Counted from the first letter of the stretch, positions 6,385 through 41,261 are shown. The stretch is DNA of 64,000 nt from Armatimonadota bacterium (GCA_034722055.1 JAYENL010000314.1:26641-90640); one strand, 5' to 3'. The notes: generated by a model from the letters alone, not told the origin. Numbers and translations: made by a program.

Positions 6385-7317
6385 ATGGGCGTGAGGATCT
6401 TCGAGGACATCACCCAGACCATCGGCAACACGCCCCTGGTCCGGCTGGCGAGGCTGGACTCGGGTCTGCCCGGGCGGGTGGTGGGGAAGCTGGAGGCGTT
6501 CAATCCCGCCGGGTGCGTGAAGGAGCGCATCGGCTGGGAGATGATCGTCACCGCGGAGCGGGAGGGGCGGATCGAGCCCGACCGCACCACGATCATCGAG
6601 CCCACCAGCGGCAACACCGGGGTGGGGCTGGCGATGGTGGGGGCGGCGCGCGGCTACCGGGTGGTGCTGTGCATGCCCGAGAGCATGAGCCTGGAGCGGC
6701 GCAAGCTCCTGGCCGCCTTCGGCGCGGAGCTGGAGCTGACTCCGGCCTCCGGCGGGATGGCCTCGGCCATTGAGCGGGCGAGGGAGCTGGCGGGGGAGCT
6801 TGAGGACGCCTGGATCCCGATGCAGTTCGAGAATCCTGCCAACCCGGCGGCCCACCAGCGGACTACGGCTGAGGAGATCTGGGCGGACACGGAGGGAGCC
6901 GTGGACGCCGTGGTGGCGGGCATCGGCACCGGTGGGACGGTCACCGGGATCGCGCGCGCCCTCAAGCCCCGCAAGCAGGAGCTGCGCATCATTGGGGTGG
7001 AGCCCGCCGAGTCCGCGGTCATCTCAGGCGAGGAGCCGGGGCCGCACGGCATTCAGGGCATCGGGGCGGGCTTCATCCCGGACGTGCTGGAGGTGGCCCT
7101 GCTGGATGAGGTGGTGCAGGTGACCACCGAGGACGCAAAGGTCATGGGTCGGCGGCTGGCGGCGGAGGAGGGCATCCTGGCGGGGATCTCCTCGGGCGCC
7201 GCCGTCCACGCGGCGCTGGCGGTGGCCGCGCGGGACGAGATGCGGGAGCGGCTGATCGTGGTTATCCTGCCGGACACCGGCGAGCGCTACCTCTCGACGG
7301 ACCTGTTCGAGCGGTAA
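6385..7317 (+). CDS. cysK: Cysteine synthase A (O-acetylserine sulfhydrylase, PLP-dependent)
   Basis: Typical CysK N-terminus ('[17 protein letters not shown]'). The PLP-lysine region '[19 protein letters not shown]', 'TSGNTG' and the glycine-rich '[10 protein letters not shown]' loop are all present. ATG 6385 is preceded by 'GGGGAGG'. Confidence 0.9.
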
Positions 7318-27504: not shown

Positions 27505-30123
27505 TCAGCCCTCCGCCGTCCGCAGCAGCGTGTCGGCGATATGGAAGCGGCAGGGTCTGGGGATGCCCCAGCCGGGGTAGTACATCATCTTGATGAGCTC
27601 CCCGCGTATCTCCATCCCCGGCTCGTCTCGGGAGTAGATCATCGAGCCGGTCTCCCTGGCCTCCACGCGGTCGATGATGAAGGCCTGCGTCAGCGTCCCG
27701 CCCAGGTCCACCACCAGGCACCGTCCCTCCAGCCCCTCCGGCAGCTCCGCGTCGGTCTCGAAGGCGTCGAACTCGTCGCCGGCCTCGACTCGATGCGTGG
27801 CGATGACCTCACCCTGGTGCCAGCCGGGCCCGGAGAGGTCGATGTCCCCTGCGGCCAGGCGCGTGGCGTCAACCCCGTAGGCGTGCACGGGCCGGTCGCC
27901 GTCGAAGCGCAGGTGGGCGAAGCGGCCCGCGAAGGTCACGCCGCCGGCGGTGGCGTGTTCGGCGAAGGGGCCGTCATCGGCGGAGCTGAGGATCAGGTCG
28001 GTGCGGCCGTCGGCCAGCGTCACCCGCAGGCCGACGTCCATCGGCCCGCCCCACTGGACGGGCTCGATGGACTGCACGTTCGGCCGCCCCTGGAAGGCAT
28101 CGTGGACCGCCACGAAGACCGACTCCCCGCTGGTGCGGCGCACGTCGATGAAGTCCGCGTATCCCTCGTGGCGCATGGCCGGGCCGCGCGCGACGATCAC
28201 TCGCGTCCCCGGCGCCCCCAGCACGTGCGTCCGGAGGCTGGAGCCGGCCTGGTAGTCGAACTGCGCGGTCCACCCCTCTCCCGTGTCCGCGGCCCGCAGC
28301 ATGTCCAGGTACTGGTGCAGCACGCCCTCCATGGGCGTGAGGTCCAGCGAGGTCGTCAGCGTGTAGGGGTCCTGCAGGCAGCCGTGCAGCATCCAGTCAT
28401 GCGTCTCCCCGCCGCGGACGCGGAAGATGTCCACCGCGTAGACCTGGCTGCCGTCTATGCGCACCAGGGCCACCGTGCGGCGGTAGATCTCCGGCTCCGG
28501 ATACCACGCGCGCTCGCCCTCGGCCTCCGCCACCTGCACGGTATCCCAGTCGGGGCAGAAGCAGCGCAGCTTGGGGTCATTGAGTGCGTTCCCGTGGCCG
28601 CCGTCCCGGTAGCGCCAGTTGGGGATGTCGATGGTCATGCCGGCGTGCTGCGAGATGCCCTCCATGGCGTCGGCCTCGGTAATCGGCCGCCGGTGGCTCT
28701 CGTGCGGGAAGCGCCCCTGCTGGTTCTGCTCGTCGATGACCACCGTGTTGTGCCCCGCGGTCATGGTCTGCCACTCGCGGGTGGAGGGCCAGTCGTCTGG
28801 GGCGCGGTACTTGGTCTCCGAGAGGTGCTCGCGGCCCCCGGCGAAGAGGATGATGCTCAGGGCGTCGTAGTGCTCGTGGCCGTGGGTGCCGGAGTAGTGG
28901 AGGTGAAGCTGCGCCTGGTCGTCGCCCTCGCCAGTCCCCAGGATGGCGTGCCCCATGCAGCCAAGGATGCGCGGGTAGGAGCGCTGGGGCTTGCTGTCCC
29001 ACCAGGCGCCGTGGGGGAATGAGGCGTCGTGGAGCTTGGCGTAGTCCTTGTTCGGGAAGGTCAGCTTCTTGAGGGCGTCCCACATGCGCTGGTGCTGGCG
29101 GGCGTACTCCGCCGCCAGGTCCAGGTGGTCGTATCGCGGCAGGTCGATCTCGCAGGTGTAGCCGGGCGGGTCGGAGTAGCCCTCTACCGCCGCCGGCGCC
29201 CTCCGGGTCAGGCCCACAGTAATGTCTTTATGGTAGCTCGGCGAGCCCTCATGCCAGAATCCGTCGGCGTAGTACATGGCGTTGATGATATAGCGATAGC
29301 GCTGCACGGCGATGTGCACGTAGTGGGGCTCGGGGATGGCCATGCCATACAGCGGCAGCGAGCGGAGCATGTAGTGCGTGAGGTTCCCCAGGCCCAGCGG
29401 CCGCTCCAGGTAATGCTCGGGGATGTGGCGGATCAGGTCTCGCTCGATCTGCTCCACCGCGCCCAACTGCTGCATGGCGCCCGAGGCGTGGATCATGTCA
29501 AAGGCCCGGACCACGGGCAGTCCGAACTCGATGTCGGAGACGAACCACACGCCCCACAGGCCGTTGGCGTCCCACGCCCGGCGGTAGGCCTCATCGTCCT
29601 GGTCGCGCAGCTGCCCCTCGCGCGTGACCAGCGGCCACTGCGGCATGACCTGTGCGTAGCGCTGCAGGATCAGCGCGCAGCGGCGGGCGGCGTTGGCGTC
29701 GCCGGTCAGCCGCCACAGGCGGGCCAGGTCCCAGGCCACCAGCCGCATGGCGATGTTGCTGTCATCCAGCGCACCGCGCTCGGTGATCTGCGCCCGCAGC
29801 TCATCCTCGGAGACCTCCAGCCAGGGAGCCGTCAGCGCCGCCAGGATTCGCGCCGCCCGCTCCCCGGGGTCCGCCTCTCCAGTGGTCTGGTGTAGCCGGA
29901 AGAGCAGGTCGGCCGCCGCGCGGGGCGGCGCGTTCTCCTCCGCGAGCGGCTGGCGCGGCTTCACGCTCGCCAGCAGCTCATCGTCGCTCTGCGGGAAGCG
30001 ATCCTCGAGCCGCTCCCGCGTCGCTTCAGGATCGCACTCGTAGCTGAGGAACGGCCGCTGCGCCACGGCCTGTATCGTCGAGCTGACCAGGAGCACGACT
30101 GCCACCAGCAGCATTGCACGCAT
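27505..30123 (-). CDS. Secreted heparinase II/III-like polysaccharide lyase (alginate-lyase-like alpha toroid plus heparinase II/III C-terminal domain)
   Basis: Signal peptide 'MRAMLLVAVVLLVSSTIQAVAQ'. Heparinase II/III hallmark 'HYSGTHGHEHYDALSIILFAGGREHL...AGHNTVVID'. The true start is the ATG at 30123; the track ORF extends further upstream. Confidence 0.7.
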   Translation of the reverse strand: MRAMLLVAVVLLVSSTIQAVAQRPFLSYECDPEATRERLEDRFPQSDDELLASVKPRQPLAEENAPPRAAADLLFRLHQTTGEADPGERAARILAALTAPWLEVSEDELRAQITERGALDDSNIAMRLVAWDLARLWRLTGDANAARRCALILQRYAQVMPQWPLVTREGQLRDQDDEAYRRAWDANGLWGVWFVSDIEFGLPVVRAFDMIHASGAMQQLGAVEQIERDLIRHIPEHYLERPLGLGNLTHYMLRSLPLYGMAIPEPHYVHIAVQRYRYIINAMYYADGFWHEGSPSYHKDITVGLTRRAPAAVEGYSDPPGYTCEIDLPRYDHLDLAAEYARQHQRMWDALKKLTFPNKDYAKLHDASFPHGAWWDSKPQRSYPRILGCMGHAILGTGEGDDQAQLHLHYSGTHGHEHYDALSIILFAGGREHLSETKYRAPDDWPSTREWQTMTAGHNTVVIDEQNQQGRFPHESHRRPITEADAMEGISQHAGMTIDIPNWRYRDGGHGNALNDPKLRCFCPDWDTVQVAEAEGERAWYPEPEIYRRTVALVRIDGSQVYAVDIFRVRGGETHDWMLHGCLQDPYTLTTSLDLTPMEGVLHQYLDMLRAADTGEGWTAQFDYQAGSSLRTHVLGAPGTRVIVARGPAMRHEGYADFIDVRRTSGESVFVAVHDAFQGRPNVQSIEPVQWGGPMDVGLRVTLADGRTDLILSSADDGPFAEHATAGGVTFAGRFAHLRFDGDRPVHAYGVDATRLAAGDIDLSGPGWHQGEVIATHRVEAGDEFDAFETDAELPEGLEGRCLVVDLGGTLTQAFIIDRVEARETGSMIYSRDEPGMEIRGELIKMMYYPGWGIPRPCRFHIADTLLRTAEG

Positions 30124-32144: not shown

Positions 32145-32300
32145 TCCCCATTCGGATCTCTCGGGTCCATGCCCAGGGGCGGGAGCCCTATCATTCCGTC
32201 CTCACCGGCCGCACACCTGCCGGCACCGAAGGGGGGAGCGGCGGCGGCGGCGAATACTTCACTGTCGGCATCACTGGGATTTCGCGGAGAAGCGACTCTC

Positions 32301-35177
32301 ATGGGGCGTCTGCTCGACCGCAGTGTGCCGGAGCGCCTTGGCCTGGCCGTAGGGCTGAGCCTCTTCCTGCTCGTGCTGCTGTTGGATGGCCTGGGGCGAC
32401 TTCAGGGCCTGGAGAACACGCTCCTGGGCGTGCGCTACGAGCTCCGTGGCCCCCGCGATCCCGCCGCGGAGGTCGTGCTGATCCCGTTTGAGGAGGGCAG
32501 CATTTTCGCCGGGGAGGGCGCTCTGCCATGGTCGCGGCAGGGCCTGGCGGGAGTGGTGGCGCGGCTGGATCAGGCCGGCGCTGCCGTCATCGGCCTGGAC
32601 CTGCCGGCGCTGGCCGGGGGGGTCATCCCCCCGCTGAGACCGGGCGAGGATCGGATGCTGGCGGCGGCGATGAAGGCGCATGGGGGGGTGGTGCTGCCCA
32701 TGGTCATCCGGGAGACGGCCTCCGCGGCGCCGCCATCAGACGCCGCGAACCGCTTCGCGCTGGGGCCGGGGAGGCTACCCAGGCCCGCGCACCTCCGGCC
32801 GGGCCATCTGGCGGTGCCCTCCAGGACTCTGTGCGAGGCGGCCGCGGGGCTGGGCACCACGAACATCTACCCCGACCTCGACGGCTCCACCATCGAGGCG
32901 CCTCTGGCGGCCTCCTGGGGGAGCACCATCTACCCGTCATTCTGGCTGGAGCTGGTGCGGGTGCTGGAGGGGCTCCCACCCGGCGCCGCCGAGATGGCCG
33001 AGGGCGAGGTTCGCGTGGGCCCCCGGAGCTACGCCGTCGATCCCCAGGCGGAGATCCTGATCAACTACGTGGGCAAGTACCGTCAGTTCCCGCGCCTTCC
33101 CTACCACTCCGCGACCGAGATGCCTCTGGCGAACCTTCGCAGCGTTGTCGAGGGGAGGATCGTGCTGGTAGGCAACGACCTGGCGGGCGTGACATCCATG
33201 CTGCGCACGCCGACCTCGCCGCTGATGCCGGGCGTTGAGATCGCCGCCACCGTGACGGAGAATCTGGCGGCGGCCACCATGCTCCGGCGGGCGCCGGCCT
33301 GGCTGGTGTGGGTGGCCACGCTGGTGCTGGTGCTGTGCGCGGGATGGATGACGGCCCGGGCGTCGCCGCTGGGCGGGGTGTTCATGACCCTGATACTGCT
33401 GGGCGTTACGGCGGTCGCGGGTCTAGCGCTGTTCATGGTGGGCGTCTACGTGGCGGTCGTCCCGGCCTTGCTGGCCGTGGCCCTGACGGGCGGGACTCTC
33501 ACGGTCACTTCTGCCGCGGAGGCCGAGCGCCACCGGACAGAGGCGGAGGGGCGGCTGCAGTCGCGGCTGCAGGCCATCGCCGGCATCGGCCGCCTGGTGA
33601 ACTCCAGCCTGGACGACGAGCAGCTTCTCGTGGAGATCCTCCGCTGGGCGGAGAGCGAGATCAACGCCGAGGCCTGCTCGCTGCTTCTCATGGAGCCGGA
33701 CGGTGAGACGCTGCGGTTTGAGGTGGCGCTGGGCGAGAAGGGGCACATGCTCAAGGACATCCGCCTCCGCGTTGGCGAGGGCCTGGCCGGGACGGCAGCA
33801 GCTACCCGCGAGCCCATCGTGGCCGACGACGTGACAGGCGATGAGCGCTGGAGCCGGGATGTGGCCTACGCCATCGACTACGAGACCGAGTCCATCGCCT
33901 GCGTGCCCATGGTGCTGCGGGACGAGGTCCTGGGCGTGATCGAGGTCATCAACAAGCGGGGCGGGAGGTTCGGCGACTACGACATCCAGCTTCTGCAGGT
34001 GATCGCCCACCAGTCGGCGCTGTTCCTGGAGAACGCGCGTCTGTATCGGGCGCTGTCGGAGAAGGTGGACCTGGCCAACGAGGAGCTGCGGCAGGCCAAC
34101 GAGCGCCTGCAGTTCGAGATGGCGCGCATCGCCACTCTGGTGGACGAGATGGGTGATGCGGTGGTGGCCACCGACGAGGCCGACCAAGTGGTGATCTTCA
34201 ACAACGCTGCGGAGCGCATCTTCGGCATCAAGGAGAGCGAGGCTCGCGGTCGGCAGGCGGTCACCGTCTTCGATCATCCTGAGCTGGCCAGGCTCTTCGG
34301 CATGCCCCTGTCGCCGCACGGTGGCTCCTACGAGACGGAGATCACCCTCGACGGGGCTCAGCCGCTGGTGGTGCGGGCCCAGATCGCGCTTATCGAGCAG
34401 CCCGGTCAGGCGGAGGTGGGCAAGTGCGCGGTGTTCAGCGACATCACGCACCTCAAAGAGCTGGACCGCATGAAGACCGACCTCATCTCGTTCGTCTCCC
34501 ACGAGCTGAAGAACCCCATCTCGTCGCTGCAGGGGGCTTGCCGCCTGCTGCACGACCGCCTGGACGTGGAGGACCCCCGCACCGGAAGGCTGCTGGAGAT
34601 CGCCTCCCGACAGGGGCGCCGGATGCAGCACCTGGTGCAGGGCTTCCTGGACCTGTCCCGGATCGAGGCCGGGCACCCGCTGGAGCTCAACTGGGAAGAG
34701 GTGACTGACCTTCGGGGGCTGATCGGGGAGGTGATGTCCTTGATCCGCGGCATGGGCTCGGAGCACCACCTGCACGCTGAGGTGGATGAGGACCTGCCGG
34801 CCTTCTGGGCCGACCGTGAGAAGCTGGAGGCAGTCCTCATCAACCTCATTGACAACGCGGTCAAATACTCACCGGACGGCGGCGATGTCACGGTCCGGGC
34901 CCTGCTGCGCGATGAGCGGGTGATGATTGAGGTGGAGGACGAGGGAGTGGGGATCCGGGAGGAGGACCTTCCCAAGCTCTTCAAGAGCTTCCAGCGGATC
35001 CACGACTCCACCTACGGGCGGGTGAGCGGCACCGGCGTGGGACTCTACATCTGCAAGCACATCATTGAGGCGCATGGGGGAGACATCACGGTGGAGAGCA
35101 CCTGGGGGGAGGGATCCATCTTCCGCCTGCACATCCCCCTGCGCGAGGCGCCGCCGGAGGGCGCGGCGGACCGATGA
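32301..35177 (+). CDS. CHASE2-TM-GAF-PAS sensor histidine kinase
   Basis: ATG at 32301. N-terminal TM helix plus an extracytoplasmic CHASE2-like domain, then 3-4 TM helices ('WLVWVATLVLVLCAGW...'). A GAF domain ('LLLMEPDGETLRFEVALGE...GLAGTAAAT') and a PAS-like segment follow. HisKA H-box 'FVSHELKNPISSLQG' and HATPase_c N/G boxes ('LINLIDNAVKYS', 'GTGVGLYICK') are present. Confidence 0.85.
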   Translation: MGRLLDRSVPERLGLAVGLSLFLLVLLLDGLGRLQGLENTLLGVRYELRGPRDPAAEVVLIPFEEGSIFAGEGALPWSRQGLAGVVARLDQAGAAVIGLDLPALAGGVIPPLRPGEDRMLAAAMKAHGGVVLPMVIRETASAAPPSDAANRFALGPGRLPRPAHLRPGHLAVPSRTLCEAAAGLGTTNIYPDLDGSTIEAPLAASWGSTIYPSFWLELVRVLEGLPPGAAEMAEGEVRVGPRSYAVDPQAEILINYVGKYRQFPRLPYHSATEMPLANLRSVVEGRIVLVGNDLAGVTSMLRTPTSPLMPGVEIAATVTENLAAATMLRRAPAWLVWVATLVLVLCAGWMTARASPLGGVFMTLILLGVTAVAGLALFMVGVYVAVVPALLAVALTGGTLTVTSAAEAERHRTEAEGRLQSRLQAIAGIGRLVNSSLDDEQLLVEILRWAESEINAEACSLLLMEPDGETLRFEVALGEKGHMLKDIRLRVGEGLAGTAAATREPIVADDVTGDERWSRDVAYAIDYETESIACVPMVLRDEVLGVIEVINKRGGRFGDYDIQLLQVIAHQSALFLENARLYRALSEKVDLANEELRQANERLQFEMARIATLVDEMGDAVVATDEADQVVIFNNAAERIFGIKESEARGRQAVTVFDHPELARLFGMPLSPHGGSYETEITLDGAQPLVVRAQIALIEQPGQAEVGKCAVFSDITHLKELDRMKTDLISFVSHELKNPISSLQGACRLLHDRLDVEDPRTGRLLEIASRQGRRMQHLVQGFLDLSRIEAGHPLELNWEEVTDLRGLIGEVMSLIRGMGSEHHLHAEVDEDLPAFWADREKLEAVLINLIDNAVKYSPDGGDVTVRALLRDERVMIEVEDEGVGIREEDLPKLFKSFQRIHDSTYGRVSGTGVGLYICKHIIEAHGGDITVESTWGEGSIFRLHIPLREAPPEGAADR

Positions 35178-35383
35178 GAGATCACCGGCTGCGGGAGGGG
35201 GACGTGGTGCGCCTGAAGAAGCCCCATCCCTGTGGGGCCAATGCCTGGGAGGTCATGCGGCTGGGCATGGACATCAAGCTCCGGTGCACCGGCTGCGGAC
35301 ACATCATACGCATGGCGCGGTCGCGCCTGGAACGTCGCATTCGGGGGTACGTGGAAGACGACGGGGACGGTGGGGAGGCGTGA
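35174..35383 (+). CDS. DUF951 family small protein
   Basis: Its 'DVVRLKKPHPCGANAWEVMRLGMDIKLRCTGCGH' block matches the DUF951 consensus from memory (database confirmation still needed). An ATGA start/stop overlap with the kinase gene. Confidence 0.65.
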   Translation: MRDHRLREGDVVRLKKPHPCGANAWEVMRLGMDIKLRCTGCGHIIRMARSRLERRIRGYVEDDGDGGEA

Positions 35384-35853
35384 AGGAGGCGCAGTTCTTG
35401 CGCCAGACCTTCGCCAGGCTGCCCACGGCCGATTGTGAGGGCTGCCACGGCTGCGCCTCGCGCTGTGTGGGCAATCTTCGCATCACGCGGACCGAGTTCG
35501 AGGCCATTGGCGACTACCTCGGTGGCGGGATGTACTTCCCCGCCGCTCGGACCAACGCGCAGATGGTGGTGCCGTGCGAGTTCAGCGAGCCGGATGGGCC
35601 GCACTGTGTCATCTACCCGGTGCGACCGCTGATCTGTCGCCTCTTCGGGATAGTGCCGTGGCTGCCGTGCCCGCTCGGGCGGGCCCTGCCGACGGTCCCC
35701 GACGCGGCGGAGATCATGCAGCAGTATCAGCAGTTCGAGCGCCACAGCTTCCGGCAGTGGCTGCGCTGCGGCCCATCGCGCGGGACCGTCCTGGCGCCGG
35801 ATGCAGCGACACGCACAGGAAGGATGCAGACATCGAGACATGGCAACAGTTGA
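35380..35853 (+). CDS. Cysteine-cluster protein (YkgJ/UPF0153-like putative Fe-S or Zn-binding protein)
   Basis: GTG start overlapping the DUF951 stop. 'CEGCHGCASRC' plus a downstream 'CEF...C...C' cysteine cluster. Low-similarity call. Confidence 0.4.
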   Translation: MKEAQFLRQTFARLPTADCEGCHGCASRCVGNLRITRTEFEAIGDYLGGGMYFPAARTNAQMVVPCEFSEPDGPHCVIYPVRPLICRLFGIVPWLPCPLGRALPTVPDAAEIMQQYQQFERHSFRQWLRCGPSRGTVLAPDAATRTGRMQTSRHGNS

Positions 35854-36283
35854 GAGCATGGTGCAGATCGACGCTTCCGTTGACCGCGTGTATGAGATCG
35901 CCCGCGACATCGAGGCCTTCCCGGAGTTCATGGATGACGTGGTTGAGGTGGAGATCCTGGAGCAGACCCCGGAGCGGCAGGTGAGCCGCTGGGTGGGGCT
36001 GATCAAGGAGTTCAATCGCACCATCGAGTGGACCGAGGAGGACCTCTGGGACGCCGAGGAGCGGAGCTGTCGCTTCTGCATGCTGGAGGGCGACTTCACC
36101 GCCTACAGCGGCATCTGGCTCTTCGAGGAGGTTGACGGCGGGACGGTGGCGAACCTCACCGTGGAATACGAGTACGATGTCCCGCTGATCGGTCCGCTGA
36201 TCAAGAAGCTCCTGCACCGCAAGGTTCAGGAGAACTGTGATAACATGCTCGAGGCCATCAAGGACAGGGCCGAGAGCGAGTGA
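35840..36283 (+). CDS. SRPBCC-superfamily protein (polyketide cyclase/dehydrase-like, START/Bet v1 fold)
   Basis: 147 aa, 'VDRVYEIARDIEAFPEFM...'. Its length and hydrophobic periodicity are typical of PF03364/PF10604. Confidence 0.55.
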   Translation: MATVESMVQIDASVDRVYEIARDIEAFPEFMDDVVEVEILEQTPERQVSRWVGLIKEFNRTIEWTEEDLWDAEERSCRFCMLEGDFTAYSGIWLFEEVDGGTVANLTVEYEYDVPLIGPLIKKLLHRKVQENCDNMLEAIKDRAESE

Positions 36284-36427
36284 GTCGTGGACTGCTCCCG
36301 GCCGGAGCATCGTGATCGCCGGCGCAGTGTTGTGTCGGCCGCAGCTTGAGCGCGGGGTGCGGTTGTGATATACTGCGCCGGAGGCTGCATCGGATCCGGC
36401 CGGGCGCATCGAAAGGTGAGGTGCGAG

Positions 36428-37333
36428 ATGCAGATTCACCGCAACTATCGCACTGGGTTTGCAGTCATCGTCTCCGTGCTGTGCTGTCTTCTGGTGGTGG
36501 GCGTTGCGGACGCGCGCGAGGTGCAGCTTGCGGGCATCCGTCTCGGCCAGCACGCCGTGAACCTGCTGGACATCTACGGGCAGCCCATGGGCATCGCCAC
36601 CGGCCAGGGCCAGGCCTTCGCCGGTGGGGGGGCCGGCGCCGGCATGGGCGCCGGAATGGGCATGGGCGCTGAGATGCCTGGAGCGGCCATGGGCGCTGAG
36701 ATGCCAGGGATGGGCCCCGGGATGGGCCCCGGCATGGGTATGGAGCCGGGTATGGGCGCGATGCCGGCCGGACCTGAGGCCGGCATGGCCCCGGAGGCCG
36801 GGATGATGGGGCCCGGCGAGTTCCCGGGAGCCGAGATGGGCGCGCCCGGTGCCGGGCCGGCGGTCGGCGCTGCAGCCGCGGGCGCCGGGGTCCAGCGCGG
36901 CGCCTACCCCACGTGGGCCCTCCCGGTGTGGGTGGACCTGGGCTCGAACGAGATCCAGTGGCTGTATCGCGTGCGAGGCGTGGTGCTGGGCTTCGTGCTG
37001 GATCGCGACGGCTACATCAACTCCATTGCCATTGCCGGCGAGGAGTGTGACTTCGCCCGCACCAGCCTGTGGCAGCCACATCAGTACGTGAAGCTCGGCG
37101 ACACCTACAAGCATGTGATCTACCGTTACGGCTGGCCGGACGAGACCCTGACCTACTTCTCGCAGGGGCAGGGCGAAGTGGGGACGGGCGGCGGGCCGGT
37201 CAGCGTTACGTTCGGCGGCACGGTGCGCGAGTTCTCCCGCGACTCCATCCTGCGCTACACCGAGCACAATAACGTGGAGTTCACCTTCCACGATATGAAG
37301 TGTGTCCGCATCCACATCTGGACCCACGAGTGA
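36428..37333 (+). CDS. Secreted protein with a Met/Gly/Pro-rich low-complexity region and a C-terminal globular domain (unknown function)
   Basis: ATG 36428 follows an 'AAAGGTGAGG' SD. Signal peptide 'MQIHRNYRTGFAVIVSVLCCLLVVGVADA'. Residues about 70-150 read 'GMGAGMGMGAEMPGAAMGAEMPGMGPGMGPGMGMEPGMGAMP...', encoded by nucleotide-level tandem repeats at 36640-36850. Confidence 0.6.
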   Translation: MQIHRNYRTGFAVIVSVLCCLLVVGVADAREVQLAGIRLGQHAVNLLDIYGQPMGIATGQGQAFAGGGAGAGMGAGMGMGAEMPGAAMGAEMPGMGPGMGPGMGMEPGMGAMPAGPEAGMAPEAGMMGPGEFPGAEMGAPGAGPAVGAAAAGAGVQRGAYPTWALPVWVDLGSNEIQWLYRVRGVVLGFVLDRDGYINSIAIAGEECDFARTSLWQPHQYVKLGDTYKHVIYRYGWPDETLTYFSQGQGEVGTGGGPVSVTFGGTVREFSRDSILRYTEHNNVEFTFHDMKCVRIHIWTHE

Positions 37334-37458
37334 GCGGCGCAGCACGTAGACCGAACAGGCCCCCGGACTCCCGGGGGCCTTTGATTTGGCTATGCACTAC
37401 GTACCTGCTGGACGGCAACGGCGCGGGCGGGCAAGCAAGTCCGCCTCCTCTTGACGCC

Positions 37459-37768: not shown

Positions 37769-37928
37769 TCACTGTTCCGTGGGCGGCGACGGCTCCTGCT
37801 GGCTATCACCTTCGGCGCCTCCGGCGGCCGGGACCCGCGACGCCCGTCCCTGCGAGAGATAGAGGACCAGCAGCAGCATTGCCAGCGCCATGTCGAGGCC
37901 GGTTATGTGTGTCAGCAGATGGTGCATT
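37769..37928 (-). CDS. Possible small hydrophobic protein (52 aa), speculative
   Basis: A perfect SD 'AAGGAG' lies 8 nt upstream of the ATG (37928 on the minus strand). MHHLLTHITGLDMALAMLLLVLYLSQGRASRVPAAGGAEGDSQQEPSPPTEQ. It lies in an otherwise gene-free 800-bp gap. Confidence 0.3.
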
Positions 37929-38079
37929 GGTCTCGCTCCTTCCGCCGAACATCGGTTCGTAGTATACGTGGGCCGCCGACGAGAGTCAAGCCCGAGCGAA
38001 TGTTCGTTCGAAAGGAGTCCGCCATGTGGCGGGGCCGAGGCTACAGATGATGCCGAGGGACTCTGCCATTGCCCTTGAC

Positions 38080-38127: not shown

Positions 38128-38175
38128 ACGTCGCGGGGCTGACGGCCATTGATTGAGGGAGGAAGCACACGCACC

Positions 38176-39330
38176 ATGATCGCACCGCACGGTGGAGAGC
38201 TCGTCAACAGCGTGCTGGAGGGGGAGGCCCTGGAGGAGGCGCGCGCCAGGGCGGCGGAGTTGCCGACGCTGGTGGTGCCGGAGGAGGCCATCAGTGATGT
38301 CCGCAACCTGGCGCGCGGAGTCTTCAGCCCCCTGCAGGGCTTCGTGACACGGGAGCAGTTCCTCGGGATCGTCAACGACGAGCGTCTGCCGGACGGCACC
38401 ATCTTCCCCATCCCCATCTTCCTCACAGTCGATGATCCGGATCAGGTGCAGGGGGGCGGTGAGGTCGCCCTGGTGAGCGAGGCCGACCCGGACACGCCGG
38501 TGGCCCTCATGACGGTGCAGGAGGTCTTCGAGTGGGATAAGTCCGCCGCGGCGGCGGCGGTGTTCGGGACCGACGACATGGCACACCCCGGCGTGGCGGG
38601 CTACCACGCTCGCGGCGACTATATGGTGGGCGGCACGGTGGAGCTGCTGCACAACGGTCGCGGCCCCTTTGCCGAGGTGAACCTCTTCCCGGCGGAGACC
38701 CGGGAGCTGTTCGCCGATCGCCGGTGGCGGACCGTCTGTGCCTTCCAGACCCGGAACGTGCCGCACGTGGGCCACGAGGAGCTGCAGAAGACCGTGCTGG
38801 GGCTGGTTGACGGCCTCATGATCCAGCCGGTCATCGGGAAGAAGAAGACGGGTGACTACCAGGACGAGGTCATCATCGCGGCCTACCAGGCGCTGATCGC
38901 GAGCTACTTCCACCCCGACCACGTGCTGTTGAACATCCTCCCCACCGAGATGCGCTACGCCGGCCCCAGGGAGGCCATCCTGCACGGGATCATGCGCAAG
39001 AACTACGGCTGCACACACATCATCATCGGCCGCGACCACGCCGGCGTGGGGGACTACTACGGCGAAGAGGAGGCCATTGAGAAGTTCGAGGCCATGGCCG
39101 ATGAGCTGGAGATCCAGCCCATCACCATCCGCGGGGACTTCTGGTACTGCCGCACCTGCGGCAGGGTCGCCTCCAGCCGTACCTGCCCCCATGAGGGCGA
39201 GGCGCGCCTGTCGTTCAGCGGGACCGAGATACGGGCGATGATCAGCGAGGGCACACCGCCGCGGCCGGAGGTCATGCGGGCGGAGGTCTTCGAGGTCATC
39301 GAGCAGTTTGACCAGCCGTTCGTGTCGTAG
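38176..39330 (+). CDS. sat: Sulfate adenylyltransferase (ATP sulfurylase)
   Basis: 'MIAPHGGELVN' N-terminus, 'QTRNVPHVGHEEL' (the QTRN...H motif) and 'GRDHAGVGDYYG'. About 385 aa. There is an alternative ATG at 38149. Confidence 0.9.
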   Translation: MIAPHGGELVNSVLEGEALEEARARAAELPTLVVPEEAISDVRNLARGVFSPLQGFVTREQFLGIVNDERLPDGTIFPIPIFLTVDDPDQVQGGGEVALVSEADPDTPVALMTVQEVFEWDKSAAAAAVFGTDDMAHPGVAGYHARGDYMVGGTVELLHNGRGPFAEVNLFPAETRELFADRRWRTVCAFQTRNVPHVGHEELQKTVLGLVDGLMIQPVIGKKKTGDYQDEVIIAAYQALIASYFHPDHVLLNILPTEMRYAGPREAILHGIMRKNYGCTHIIIGRDHAGVGDYYGEEEAIEKFEAMADELEIQPITIRGDFWYCRTCGRVASSRTCPHEGEARLSFSGTEIRAMISEGTPPRPEVMRAEVFEVIEQFDQPFVS

Positions 39331-39358
39331 CCGAATCCGGGCGGACGAGGAGAGCATC

Positions 39359-39916
39359 ATGCAGAGCGGAGTCGTCATCTGGTTCACGGGCATTCCGGCC
39401 TCTGGCAAGTCCACGCTGGCCACGGCGGTGCAGGAGCGGCTGGAGGCCATGGGCCTGCCGGTCGAGAACCTCGACGCCGACGAGGTGCGGGCCAACCTCA
39501 GCCCCAACCTGGGCTACACGGAGGAGGCCCGCGACGAGAACACCAAGCGCCTGGCGTGGTTCGCGCAGAAGCTGGCGGGGTACGGGGCGAACGTGATGAT
39601 CGCGGCGGTGGCCCCCAAGCGCCGCTACCGGGCCCGCGGCCGCCAGTGGTGCGACAGGTTCGTGGAGGTCTACGTGGAGTGCCCGCTGGAGGTGTGCCAG
39701 CAGCGCGATCCCAAGGGCCTCTACGCCCGCGCCGCGCGCGGCGAGGTCAGCGACATCGCCGGCCTGCACCAGCCCTACGAGGCGCCGGAGGCCCCGGAGG
39801 TGCACGTGACGACCTCCGAGTCCACCATCGAGGAGTGCACCGACGCCGTGATGGCCGCGCTGGCGGAGCTGGGCCATCTGTCCCTGGAGCCGGCCATGAG
39901 GCAGGCGAGCGAGTGA
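39359..39916 (+). CDS. cysC: Adenylylsulfate (APS) kinase
   Basis: 'VIWFTGIPASGKSTLA' P-loop at the N-terminus. About 185 aa. ATG 39359 follows an AGGAGA SD. It lies immediately downstream of sat. Confidence 0.9.
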   Translation: MQSGVVIWFTGIPASGKSTLATAVQERLEAMGLPVENLDADEVRANLSPNLGYTEEARDENTKRLAWFAQKLAGYGANVMIAAVAPKRRYRARGRQWCDRFVEVYVECPLEVCQQRDPKGLYARAARGEVSDIAGLHQPYEAPEAPEVHVTTSESTIEECTDAVMAALAELGHLSLEPAMRQASE

Positions 39917-39917
39917 C

Positions 39918-41261
39918 ATGCTTCGCTGGTTCAGGCGCGGACCGCAGCGGAAGCTGGTCATCATCGGCCTCGACGGCGTCCCCCACTCCCTGCTCACGGA
40001 GCTGATGGAGGCCGGTGAGATGCCCACGCTGGCCCAGATGGCGGGGTGCGGCGACCTCCGCCCCGCTCGCTCCACGCAGCCGACCGTCTCCTGCGCGGCG
40101 TGGACGTCCTTCGTCACCGGCGTGAACCCCGGCGTCCACGGCGTCTTCGGCTTCGTGGATCGCCGGCCCGGCTCCTACCAGCAGTACATCACCGGCGCGC
40201 CCCACGTGAAGTCGCCGCAACTGTGGCGGATGGTGGGTGAGCGCGACCACCGCGTCATCATCATGAACGTGCCGGTCACCTCTCCGCCACCGGAGGTCAA
40301 CGGCCTCCTGGTGGGCGGCTTCCTGGCGCCGAAGCTGGAGGGCGCCACCCACCCGCCGGAGCTCGCCACTCGGCTGGAGCGCCTCGGCTACCGCATCGAC
40401 ATCGACCCCTGGCAGGCCCGGCAGTCCCTGGACCTGCTGCTGGAGGACCTCGACGCCACCCTCGCTGGGCGGGTCGCCGGGGCCACGGAGCTGCTCTCGC
40501 GTGAGCGGTGGTCCCTGGCGATGGTGCACATCATGGGGACCGATCGCATCAACCACTTCCTGTGGGCCAAGTGGGATGACAAAGACCCCCAGTACGCCCC
40601 GCGCTTCGTCGAGTACTACTCCAAGGTGGACGCCGCGGTGGCGCAGATCGCGGAGGCGGCGGGCGACGACGCGGAGTTGCTGCTGCTCAGCGACCACGGC
40701 TTCACGCGCACGGTTCACGAGATCAACCTCGACGTGTGGCTGCGGGAGCGCGGCTACCTGAGCGTCCCGGTGTCGGAGGAGGCCGGCATTGGCGACGTGG
40801 ATGAGCGGACGCGCGTCTTCTCGATGACCCCGGGGCGCATCTACGTCAACCTTCGCGGCCGCGAGCCGCAGGGCAGCGTCGAGCCGGGTGAGGAGTATGA
40901 CGCCTTGCGGGCGGAGGTGGCAGCGGAGCTGATGGAGCTGACCGACCCGGACTCAGGCCAGCCGGTGCTGCAGAGCGTGCAGCCGCGGGAGAAGCTGTTC
41001 TCGGGGGCGGCGCTGGAGCAGGCGCCGGACCTGCTGGCGATCCCCCGCGACGGCTACGATCTCAAGAGCGCGCTGGGCGGCGAGGAGCTGTTCACCTCCA
41101 GCCCCATCACCGGTATGCACACCTTCGACGACGCCTTCTGGCTGATCCGCGGCAGGCAGTTCGCGGACGGCACCCCGCGCGTGGAGGACGGCGCCCCAAC
41201 CGCGCTGGCGCTGCTGGAGGAGGAGATCCCCGGGCACATCGAGGGCCGCCCCATGGCATGA
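39918..41261 (+). CDS. Alkaline-phosphatase-superfamily protein (type I phosphodiesterase / nucleotide pyrophosphatase-like, PF01663)
   Basis: Its start overlaps the cysC stop (TGACATG). 'KLVIIGLDGVPHSLL' and 'SDHGF' metal-ligand blocks are typical of the AlkP core. Confidence 0.6.
   Translation: MLRWFRRGPQRKLVIIGLDGVPHSLLTELMEAGEMPTLAQMAGCGDLRPARSTQPTVSCAAWTSFVTGVNPGVHGVFGFVDRRPGSYQQYITGAPHVKSPQLWRMVGERDHRVIIMNVPVTSPPPEVNGLLVGGFLAPKLEGATHPPELATRLERLGYRIDIDPWQARQSLDLLLEDLDATLAGRVAGATELLSRERWSLAMVHIMGTDRINHFLWAKWDDKDPQYAPRFVEYYSKVDAAVAQIAEAAGDDAELLLLSDHGFTRTVHEINLDVWLRERGYLSVPVSEEAGIGDVDERTRVFSMTPGRIYVNLRGREPQGSVEPGEEYDALRAEVAAELMELTDPDSGQPVLQSVQPREKLFSGAALEQAPDLLAIPRDGYDLKSALGGEELFTSSPITGMHTFDDAFWLIRGRQFADGTPRVEDGAPTALALLEEEIPGHIEGRPMA

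Follow-up and report, generated by a model that had tools for sequence, protein, structure and literature searches.

Histidine kinases without an adjacent response regulator are common, as are orphan kinases encoded beside small genes, and known orphan kinases with small-protein modulators include KinA with Sda or KipI and PhoQ with MgrB or SafA. Here we describe an operon in a 64,000-nucleotide stretch of DNA from an Armatimonadota bacterium (GCA_034722055.1, JAYENL010000314.1:26641-90640; the whole stretch, with a G+C content of ~69%, is referred to as the window). Four genes form the operon, which belongs to a single Armatimonadota lineage. The first encodes an orphan CHASE2-GAF-PAS histidine kinase, and the others encode small cytoplasmic proteins, namely, DUF951, a Cys-cluster protein of the YkgJ type, and a protein of the SRPBCC/START-like fold. 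Like the KinA and PhoQ systems, it pairs a kinase that has intact HisKA and HATPase_c domains and no response regulator beside it with small proteins from the same locus that could modulate the kinase; it differs from them in that the DUF951, YkgJ-type, and SRPBCC proteins are unrelated to known kinase modulators and in that DUF951 occurs elsewhere without a kinase. Receptors with a CHASE2 domain (PF05226) include adenylate cyclases, diguanylate cyclases, Ser/Thr kinases, and histidine kinases (PMC13001267, PMC10581220), and the window kinase shares with them an N-terminal sensor module made up of one transmembrane (TM) helix, CHASE2, and three further TM helices. The kinase itself is ordinary, while the coupling of DUF951, YkgJ-type, and START-like genes to an orphan CHASE2 kinase is undescribed in the searchable literature.

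The evidence that these genes belong together comes from their relatives. An alignment of DUF951 was searched against 185,579 species-representative genomes and the best 80 loci were kept; in all 11 Armatimonadota loci among them, DUF951 is preceded by the kinase and followed by the SRPBCC gene. At eight closer loci, where the kinase is 57 to 85% identical to that of the window, the order runs from a ceramidase and an acetyltransferase through a divergent DUF6785 gene to the kinase, DUF951, Cys-cluster, and SRPBCC genes and a gene for a Met-rich protein. At L050, L063, and L086, where kinase identity falls to ~40%, only the series kinase-DUF951-SRPBCC is kept and the flanks differ. A search for SRPBCC homologues added four contexts, namely, L134/L135 and L136/L137 (kinase 41 to 43% identical, new flanks), L140, which is of the L086 type, and L141, which has a kinase of 38% identity, new flanks, and a Cys-cluster homologue in the same slot. 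The order kinase-DUF951-(Cys-cluster)-SRPBCC was found in seven flanking contexts (the clade of the window, L050, L063, L086/L140, L134, L136, and L141), and the lineage that carries it consists of metagenome-assembled genomes labeled Armatimonadia or Ca. Zipacnadia. A preliminary description of the locus, made from its sequence alone, had held that a module would be refuted if DUF951 and the Cys-cluster gene had no conserved linkage to kinases elsewhere; within the Armatimonadota lineage, DUF951 is linked to the kinase in all seven contexts and the Cys-cluster gene in two of them. A ceramidase-family gene (PF04734) lies directly upstream of the kinase in L134 (2388-3662) and three genes off in the clade of the window (e.g., 1012-2406 in L004).

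The junctions between the genes are as tight as their order is stable. In the window, the start codon of DUF951 (ATG at 35174) and the stop codon of the kinase gene (TGA at 35175-35177) overlap at an ATGA, and the start codon of the Cys-cluster gene (GTG at 35380) and the stop codon of DUF951 (35381-35383) overlap at a GTGA. The SRPBCC gene starts with an ATG 14 nt inside the end of the Cys-cluster gene, a start that is supported by the conservation of the N terminus from residue 1 among relatives; the Met-rich gene follows after a gap of 144 nt. The kinase/DUF951 overlap is mostly 4 to 11 nt in the relatives (L004, L005, L007, L050, L063, L086, and L134) and was called as 38 nt in L136. The start of the Cys-cluster gene overlaps the stop of DUF951 in eight of nine relatives; six of these have a GTGA, another has a TTGA, and the last uses an ATG located 14 nt upstream. 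From the window alone, a TTG at 35398 with AAGGAGG 8 nt upstream would also be a plausible start for the Cys-cluster gene; the comparison favors the GTG at 35380, and in L004 no alternative start codon is available. ORF inspection and Pfam agree with the coordinates, overlaps, and domain calls of the preliminary description, and its proposal that the kinase, DUF951, and Cys-cluster genes are tightly coexpressed is borne out by the retention of the overlaps among relatives and by the recurrence of the gene order. Altogether, these results establish a compact operon whose genes have been held together by selection in the Armatimonadota lineage, and the operon is very probably cotranslated.

Transcription signals are consistent with this arrangement (Table 1). 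The motif CGAATAC begins 49 to 54 nt before the kinase ATG in all seven close-clade loci compared (five of these distances were measured automatically, at 49 to 50 nt, and those of L015 and L016 come from manual counts on the sequences after start-codon reassignment), and it remains while the surrounding intergenic sequence diverges. We infer that it is probably a -10-like element of the operon promoter. As a marker of a wider regulon it is uninformative beyond its local conservation, with only two copies in the window, which is chance level. A second motif, (A/G)ACCTGC, occurs in the kinase/DUF6785 intergenic region of the same number of compared loci (7 of 7), at a spacing from CGAATAC that varies from 30 to 158 nt, and could be a regulator site or a piece of the divergent promoter. 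A promoter scan returned four sites in the scanned region, compared with 0.5 expected from shuffles, and found neither a promoter-like nor a terminator-like site at the gene junctions from the kinase to the SRPBCC gene. The first terminator-like site detected on the plus strand after the kinase start is a hairpin downstream of the Met-rich gene. One transcript likely runs from ~32.26 kb through the SRPBCC gene, perhaps reading on, with a second start for the Met-rich gene. Independent promoters for each gene had been put forward as an argument against a module; their absence from the junctions between kinase and SRPBCC favors one, and the promoter-like site before the Met-rich gene speaks against that gene's membership.

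Table 1. Genes and signals of the operon and its surroundings, by position in the window
Feature	Position	Strand	Basis or remark
Stand-alone receiver domain protein, 138 aa	9328..9744	-	six-frame profile search
Heparinase II/III-like protein	27505..30123	-	
DUF6785 + DUF6784 membrane protein, 663 aa	30153..32144	-	divergent from kinase
(A/G)ACCTGC motif	32215..32220		
CGAATAC motif, probable -10 of operon promoter	32251..32257	+	conserved position, ~44 nt before kinase ATG
Orphan membrane sensor histidine kinase, 958 aa	32301..35177	+	Pfam
DUF951 protein, 69 aa	35174..35383	+	PF06107
YkgJ-type CxxCxxCC Cys-cluster protein, 157 aa	35380..35853	+	PF03692, marginal
SRPBCC/START-like protein, 147 aa, acidic	35840..36283	+	PF03364, PF10604
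Promoter-like TTGAGC-17-TATACT with TG extension, before Met-rich gene	36346..36374	+	consensus match only
Secreted Met-rich protein, 301 aa, peripheral to operon	36428..37333	+	Pfam-family-free
Terminator-like hairpin, 10 bp (9 G-C), then T-rich tail TTGATTTGG	37357..37380	+	24 nt past Met-rich stop
52-aa ORF, MHHLLTHITGLDMALAMLLLVLYLSQGR...	37769..37927	-	one hydrophobic helix
Sigma-70-like promoter (10 of 12) of 52-aa ORF	37989..37961	-	
ATP sulfurylase	38149..39330	+	tight cluster
APS kinase	39308..39916	+	tight cluster
Alkaline-phosphatase-family phosphodiesterase	39918..41261	+	tight cluster

The kinase has all of the motifs that autophosphorylation requires. Pfam profiles match CHASE2 (3.1e-37, residues 22 to 348), GAF (6e-19), PAS (4e-7), HisKA (PF00512, 1.8e-16), and HATPase_c (PF02518, 4e-30), and hydrophobic segments at ~8 to 37 and 328 to 404 give the architecture TM, CHASE2, three TM, GAF, PAS, HisKA, HATPase_c, with the one N-terminal and several C-terminal TM helices that accompany a CHASE2 profile match. 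The catalytic motifs are intact, comprising the H box with its histidine (HELKNP, 734) and, in HATPase_c, the N (NLIDNAVKY, 848), G1 (DEGVGI, 880), F (FKSF, 894), and G2 (GTGVGL, 910) boxes, as in a histidine kinase of the HisKA type; NCBIfam returned sub-threshold matches only, within the kinase core. To judge from these motifs, the protein is probably a normal, active membrane sensor kinase. A six-frame profile search of the 64 kb found one receiver domain, on the minus strand 23 kb from the kinase, in a stand-alone protein encoded between an FGGY sugar kinase gene and a homocysteine-biosynthesis gene, so that the absence of an adjacent receiver noted in the preliminary description holds. 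Searches by tblastn and hidden Markov model turned up no receiver around 22 related loci in the flanks covered, and a stand-alone receiver 4.4 kb from the operon of L134 is not orthologous to that of the window. The kinase is a true orphan.

The DUF951 protein is an unequivocal member of its family (PF06107, 7e-26, 90.5 bits against a cutoff of 25). Seven residues are invariant in 26 DUF951 sequences (K15, K16, H18, C20, G21, C38, and C41, a KKxHxCG...CxxC core), and the Armatimonadota proteins retain every one of them. The protein is predicted to form a basic small beta-barrel with a zinc site. Literature on the family is almost absent, with two mentions in searchable full text, neither concerning function. 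The family is widespread in phyla of the Gram-positive type. We take YyzM of Bacillus subtilis (BSU40939; MMSYN1_0873 of JCVI-syn3.0) to be a DUF951 member, an assumption that fits only through the matching rpsF/ychF neighborhood of Bacillota DUF951 loci. One study lists this protein, with its "features of nucleic acid binding," among the persistent unknowns (PMC4993169), and another places it computationally under "expression of genetic information" (PMC6629657). The window protein and YyzM would share Pfam family, size, and the invariant H-x-C...C-x-x-C and KK motifs. They differ in setting, since the gene in Bacillota and Coriobacteriia adjoins rpsF, ychF, MscS, S1, or M23-peptidase genes and translational coupling to a kinase is found only in the Armatimonadota lineage.

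We asked how far the association of DUF951 with this kinase extends. Immediate neighbors were analyzed at 66 of 69 non-Armatimonadota DUF951 loci, from Bacillota, Coriobacteriia and other Actinomycetota, and Chloroflexota, and at none of the 66 was this kinase, the SRPBCC gene, or the Cys-cluster gene adjacent. Upstream neighbors encode SIR2 (seven loci), S1-domain (seven), ACT/DUF711 (7/5), and MscS (four) proteins, and downstream neighbors encode an M23 peptidase (16, Coriobacteriia-type and mostly convergent), ribosomal protein S6 (rpsF; seven), and YchF (two). With the kinase adjacent only in the 11 Armatimonadota loci among the best 80, a general DUF951-kinase linkage was rejected. In the reverse direction, a CHASE2-domain alignment was searched against metagenomes, with at least 45 loci listed as a sample; among these matches, three close relatives of the kinase repeat the operon where the sequence extends, whereas neither DUF951 nor an SRPBCC gene lies within reach at the 42 distant loci, which sets the window kinase apart from other CHASE2 receptors. 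Recurrent linkage of DUF951 to CHASE2 kinases across genomes, which the preliminary description had proposed looking for, is not seen outside Armatimonadota in either direction among the loci analyzed. Among these loci, DUF951 is tied to a single kinase orthogroup of Armatimonadota and not to CHASE2 kinases at large.

Such a distribution would fit a historical accident, in which a housekeeping DUF951 gene, perhaps together with the SRPBCC gene, became attached to the 3' end of the kinase gene in an ancestor and stayed there because a compact operon with overlapping genes is costly to break. The kinase-free neighborhoods of DUF951 in other phyla, the distant CHASE2 proteins without DUF951 among the matches listed, the invariant residues of the Armatimonadota proteins, which give no sign of specialization, and the treatment of YyzM, if it is a DUF951 protein, as a persistent unknown possibly involved in gene expression (PMC4993169, PMC6629657) would all be accommodated. 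However, both flanks have been rearranged independently at least seven times while this order was kept, down to a kinase identity of ~38%, and three different small genes, not one, have been kept together. We regard an accident of this kind as a genuine possibility, though not a probable one.

Gene order that is kept through flank rearrangement usually marks functional coupling, and the retention of the three small genes together through at least seven such rearrangements counts for a partnership with the kinase. The interpretation we prefer, to which we give about an even chance, is that the locus is a clade-specific operon of an orphan kinase and accessory partner proteins. CHASE2 would sense a signal outside the cytoplasm, while GAF and PAS would sense inside it. 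After autophosphorylation on His734, the kinase would hand its phosphate on to a response regulator whose gene lies elsewhere. DUF951, the Cys-cluster protein, and the SRPBCC protein would be coproduced as accessory partners of the pathway; the SRPBCC protein, with or without the Cys-cluster protein, may bind or handle a hydrophobic or redox-active ligand, and DUF951, a strongly basic protein, probably keeps the role it has in other phyla, most likely the binding of nucleic acid or a large cellular machine, with its amount tied to expression of the kinase.

Several observations weigh against this interpretation. The evidence for a partnership of kinase and small proteins ends at coexpression. 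The invariant residues of DUF951 are unchanged, and the family is found without kinases in several other phyla, which suggests a core function independent of the kinase. An SRPBCC orthologue of 61% identity (L138/L139) follows two amidohydrolase genes without a kinase or DUF951, and only two of the seven contexts contain the Cys-cluster gene. Moreover, the genomes may represent as few as one or two classes, in which case shared ancestry explains part of the conservation.

A direct partnership of kinase and DUF951 is a plausible hypothesis. In its fullest form, DUF951 would be a non-receiver partner of the kinase, either its output or its modulator, so that the kinase would control a general factor that binds nucleic acid or a cellular machine without a classical response regulator, and the SRPBCC and YkgJ-type proteins would supply a cytoplasmic ligand or redox input. 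We consider this full form unlikely.

The SRPBCC protein is well placed in its superfamily by full-length matches to PF03364 (9e-20, 71.6 bits) and PF10604 (1e-16, 61.9 bits) and has a pI of 4.2. Its nearest solved relative is TTHA0849 of Thermus thermophilus (PDB 2D4R; 1.2e-25), a START/SRPBCC protein of equal size to which it is similar over its full length. NCBI and JGI name several of its orthologues "RatA family toxin," and a weak match to a RatA model (1e-6) raises the question of whether it is a ribosome-association toxin with a neighboring small protein as its antidote. However, its score against the RatA equivalog NF007999 is 28.9 bits, far below the cutoff of 258, and a RatA identity was rejected on this ground. 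The START-like nature of TTHA0849 also points elsewhere, the neighboring proteins match no toxin-antitoxin family, and the gene is stably inherited with the kinase and is not mobile. With PADLOC, the kinase gave nothing beyond weak, generic HATPase matches and the DUF951, Cys-cluster, SRPBCC, and Met-rich proteins gave no defense-system match; a defense-system identity was likewise rejected. A toxin module of the RatA type is, in our judgment, most improbable.

The Cys-cluster protein reaches PF03692 only marginally (1e-4, 23.2 bits against a cutoff of 23.0), and no relative of solved structure was found for it. Ten orthologues share eight invariant cysteines, which lie in the motifs CxxCxxCxxxC, CEF, CxIYPVRPLxCR, and WLPCP. 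The protein shares an N-terminal CxxCxxC and a C-terminal CxIYxxRPxxCR with YkgJ/UPF0153 proteins and differs from them in barely reaching the Pfam threshold; to our knowledge, no member of YkgJ/UPF0153 has a defined signaling role. The homologue in the same slot of L141 is 35% identical and matches PF03692 clearly. That two deeply separated lineages both carry the gene suggests that the ancestor had all four genes in its operon and that losses followed. In L086, DUF951 and the SRPBCC gene are separated by a noncoding gap of 308 nt (6808-7114), in which no leftover similarity to the Cys-cluster protein was detected; the gap is 13 nt in its relative L140, and other lineages have the Cys-cluster gene there. 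Apparent frameshifts disrupt the Cys-cluster gene of L005 and truncate the SRPBCC gene of L007, and each gene is intact in the near-identical contig from a different assembly (L006 and L008, respectively); the frameshifts are probably assembly errors and not signs of pseudogenes.

The secreted Met-rich protein encoded downstream begins with a signal peptide; its N-terminal segment and C-terminal domain are conserved, and the linker between them varies in length. The linker (~residues 63 to 160) is predicted to be disordered, is rich in Gly, Met, Pro, Ala, and Glu, and is 16% Met, with MGM and MxM-type repeats. Met counts vary from 7 to 22 per 130 residues in the compared loci, and the P0293 homologue is nearly Met-free. 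The protein belongs to no Pfam or NCBIfam family and has no meaningful sequence match in the PDB; its own family has ~150 members, none with a Pfam domain and nearly all, where the source is named, from Armatimonadota. Its folded part is predicted to resemble a BamE/BLIP/DUF4309 protein-interaction domain split by the linker. It would differ from BamE, BLIP, DUF4309 (YjgB), and YfeY proteins in matching none of these families in sequence and in being uniquely split by a disordered Met/Gly/Pro linker of ~100 residues. Some members of otherwise Armatimonadota-only families, among them L015 and the proteins P0160 and P0230, bear the names of other phyla ("candidate division WS1," "Acidobacteriota," and "Bacteroidota"); since their loci carry the typical Armatimonadota operon, misbinning or mislabeling seems likely.

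The preliminary description had counted the Met-rich protein among the parts of an undescribed signaling or metal-handling module. In addition to having its own promoter-like site, its gene is absent from the five distant loci that also lack the Cys-cluster gene (L050, L063, L086/L140, L134, and L136), and in the genome of L134 a homologue lies elsewhere on the same 508-kb contig. By these features it is best read as a neighboring, separately promoted cell-envelope protein outside the operon core. We also considered a copper or other metal module, in which the Met-rich protein would bind Cu(I) in the periplasm, the Cys-cluster protein and DUF951 would bind metal in the cytoplasm, and the kinase would sense metal stress. 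The Met repeats, the Met-richness of most homologues, and the conserved Cys/His clusters of DUF951 and the Cys-cluster protein are what such a module would call for. However, no copper or other metal family was matched in Pfam or NCBIfam, the Met-rich protein has neither the family nor the fold of copper proteins of the CopC/PcoC, CusF, or CueO-insert type, and its Met stretch appears to be a variable disordered linker within a BamE/BLIP/DUF4309-like fold. The Cys/His clusters seem to play a structural part, no gene for metal efflux or chaperoning lies in the vicinity, and the Met-rich gene is missing from five distant loci. Metal handling is accordingly very unlikely. What stands of the original proposal is the conserved operon, together with a signaling role of the small proteins that is plausible and that, in the accessory-partner form preferred above, we rate as evenly balanced.

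The surroundings of the operon offer further observations. The DUF6785 gene that diverges from the kinase keeps its position throughout the close clade, at 70 to 90% identity, and a copy of 38% identity lies ~5 kb from the kinase-less SRPBCC gene of L138. Beyond it lies the gene for the heparinase II/III-like protein, and downstream of the operon the ATP sulfurylase, APS kinase, and phosphodiesterase genes form a tight cluster; together, these suggest sulfated-polysaccharide metabolism nearby. The 815-nt gap between the Met-rich and ATP sulfurylase genes is empty except for an ORF of 52 codons on the minus strand, which is preceded by a GGAAGGAG ribosome-binding site at ~8 nt and may encode an unannotated small membrane protein. 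No Rfam match was found in the window or in the gap at 37.3 to 38.2 kb, and no tRNA was found.

Within a little-studied phylum, the operon makes a defined orphan kinase available for study. If it is true, a direct partnership with the kinase would be the first functional handle on DUF951, a family whose probable Bacillus/Mycoplasma counterpart, YyzM, figures among the uncharacterized proteins that persist in the minimal genome (PMC4993169, PMC6629657). Clues to the partners of DUF951 are few, and a gene order that has outlasted repeated rearrangement of its flanks is one of them, if a modest one; it offers a candidate set of partners in the CHASE2 kinase, the START-like protein, and the Cys-cluster protein.

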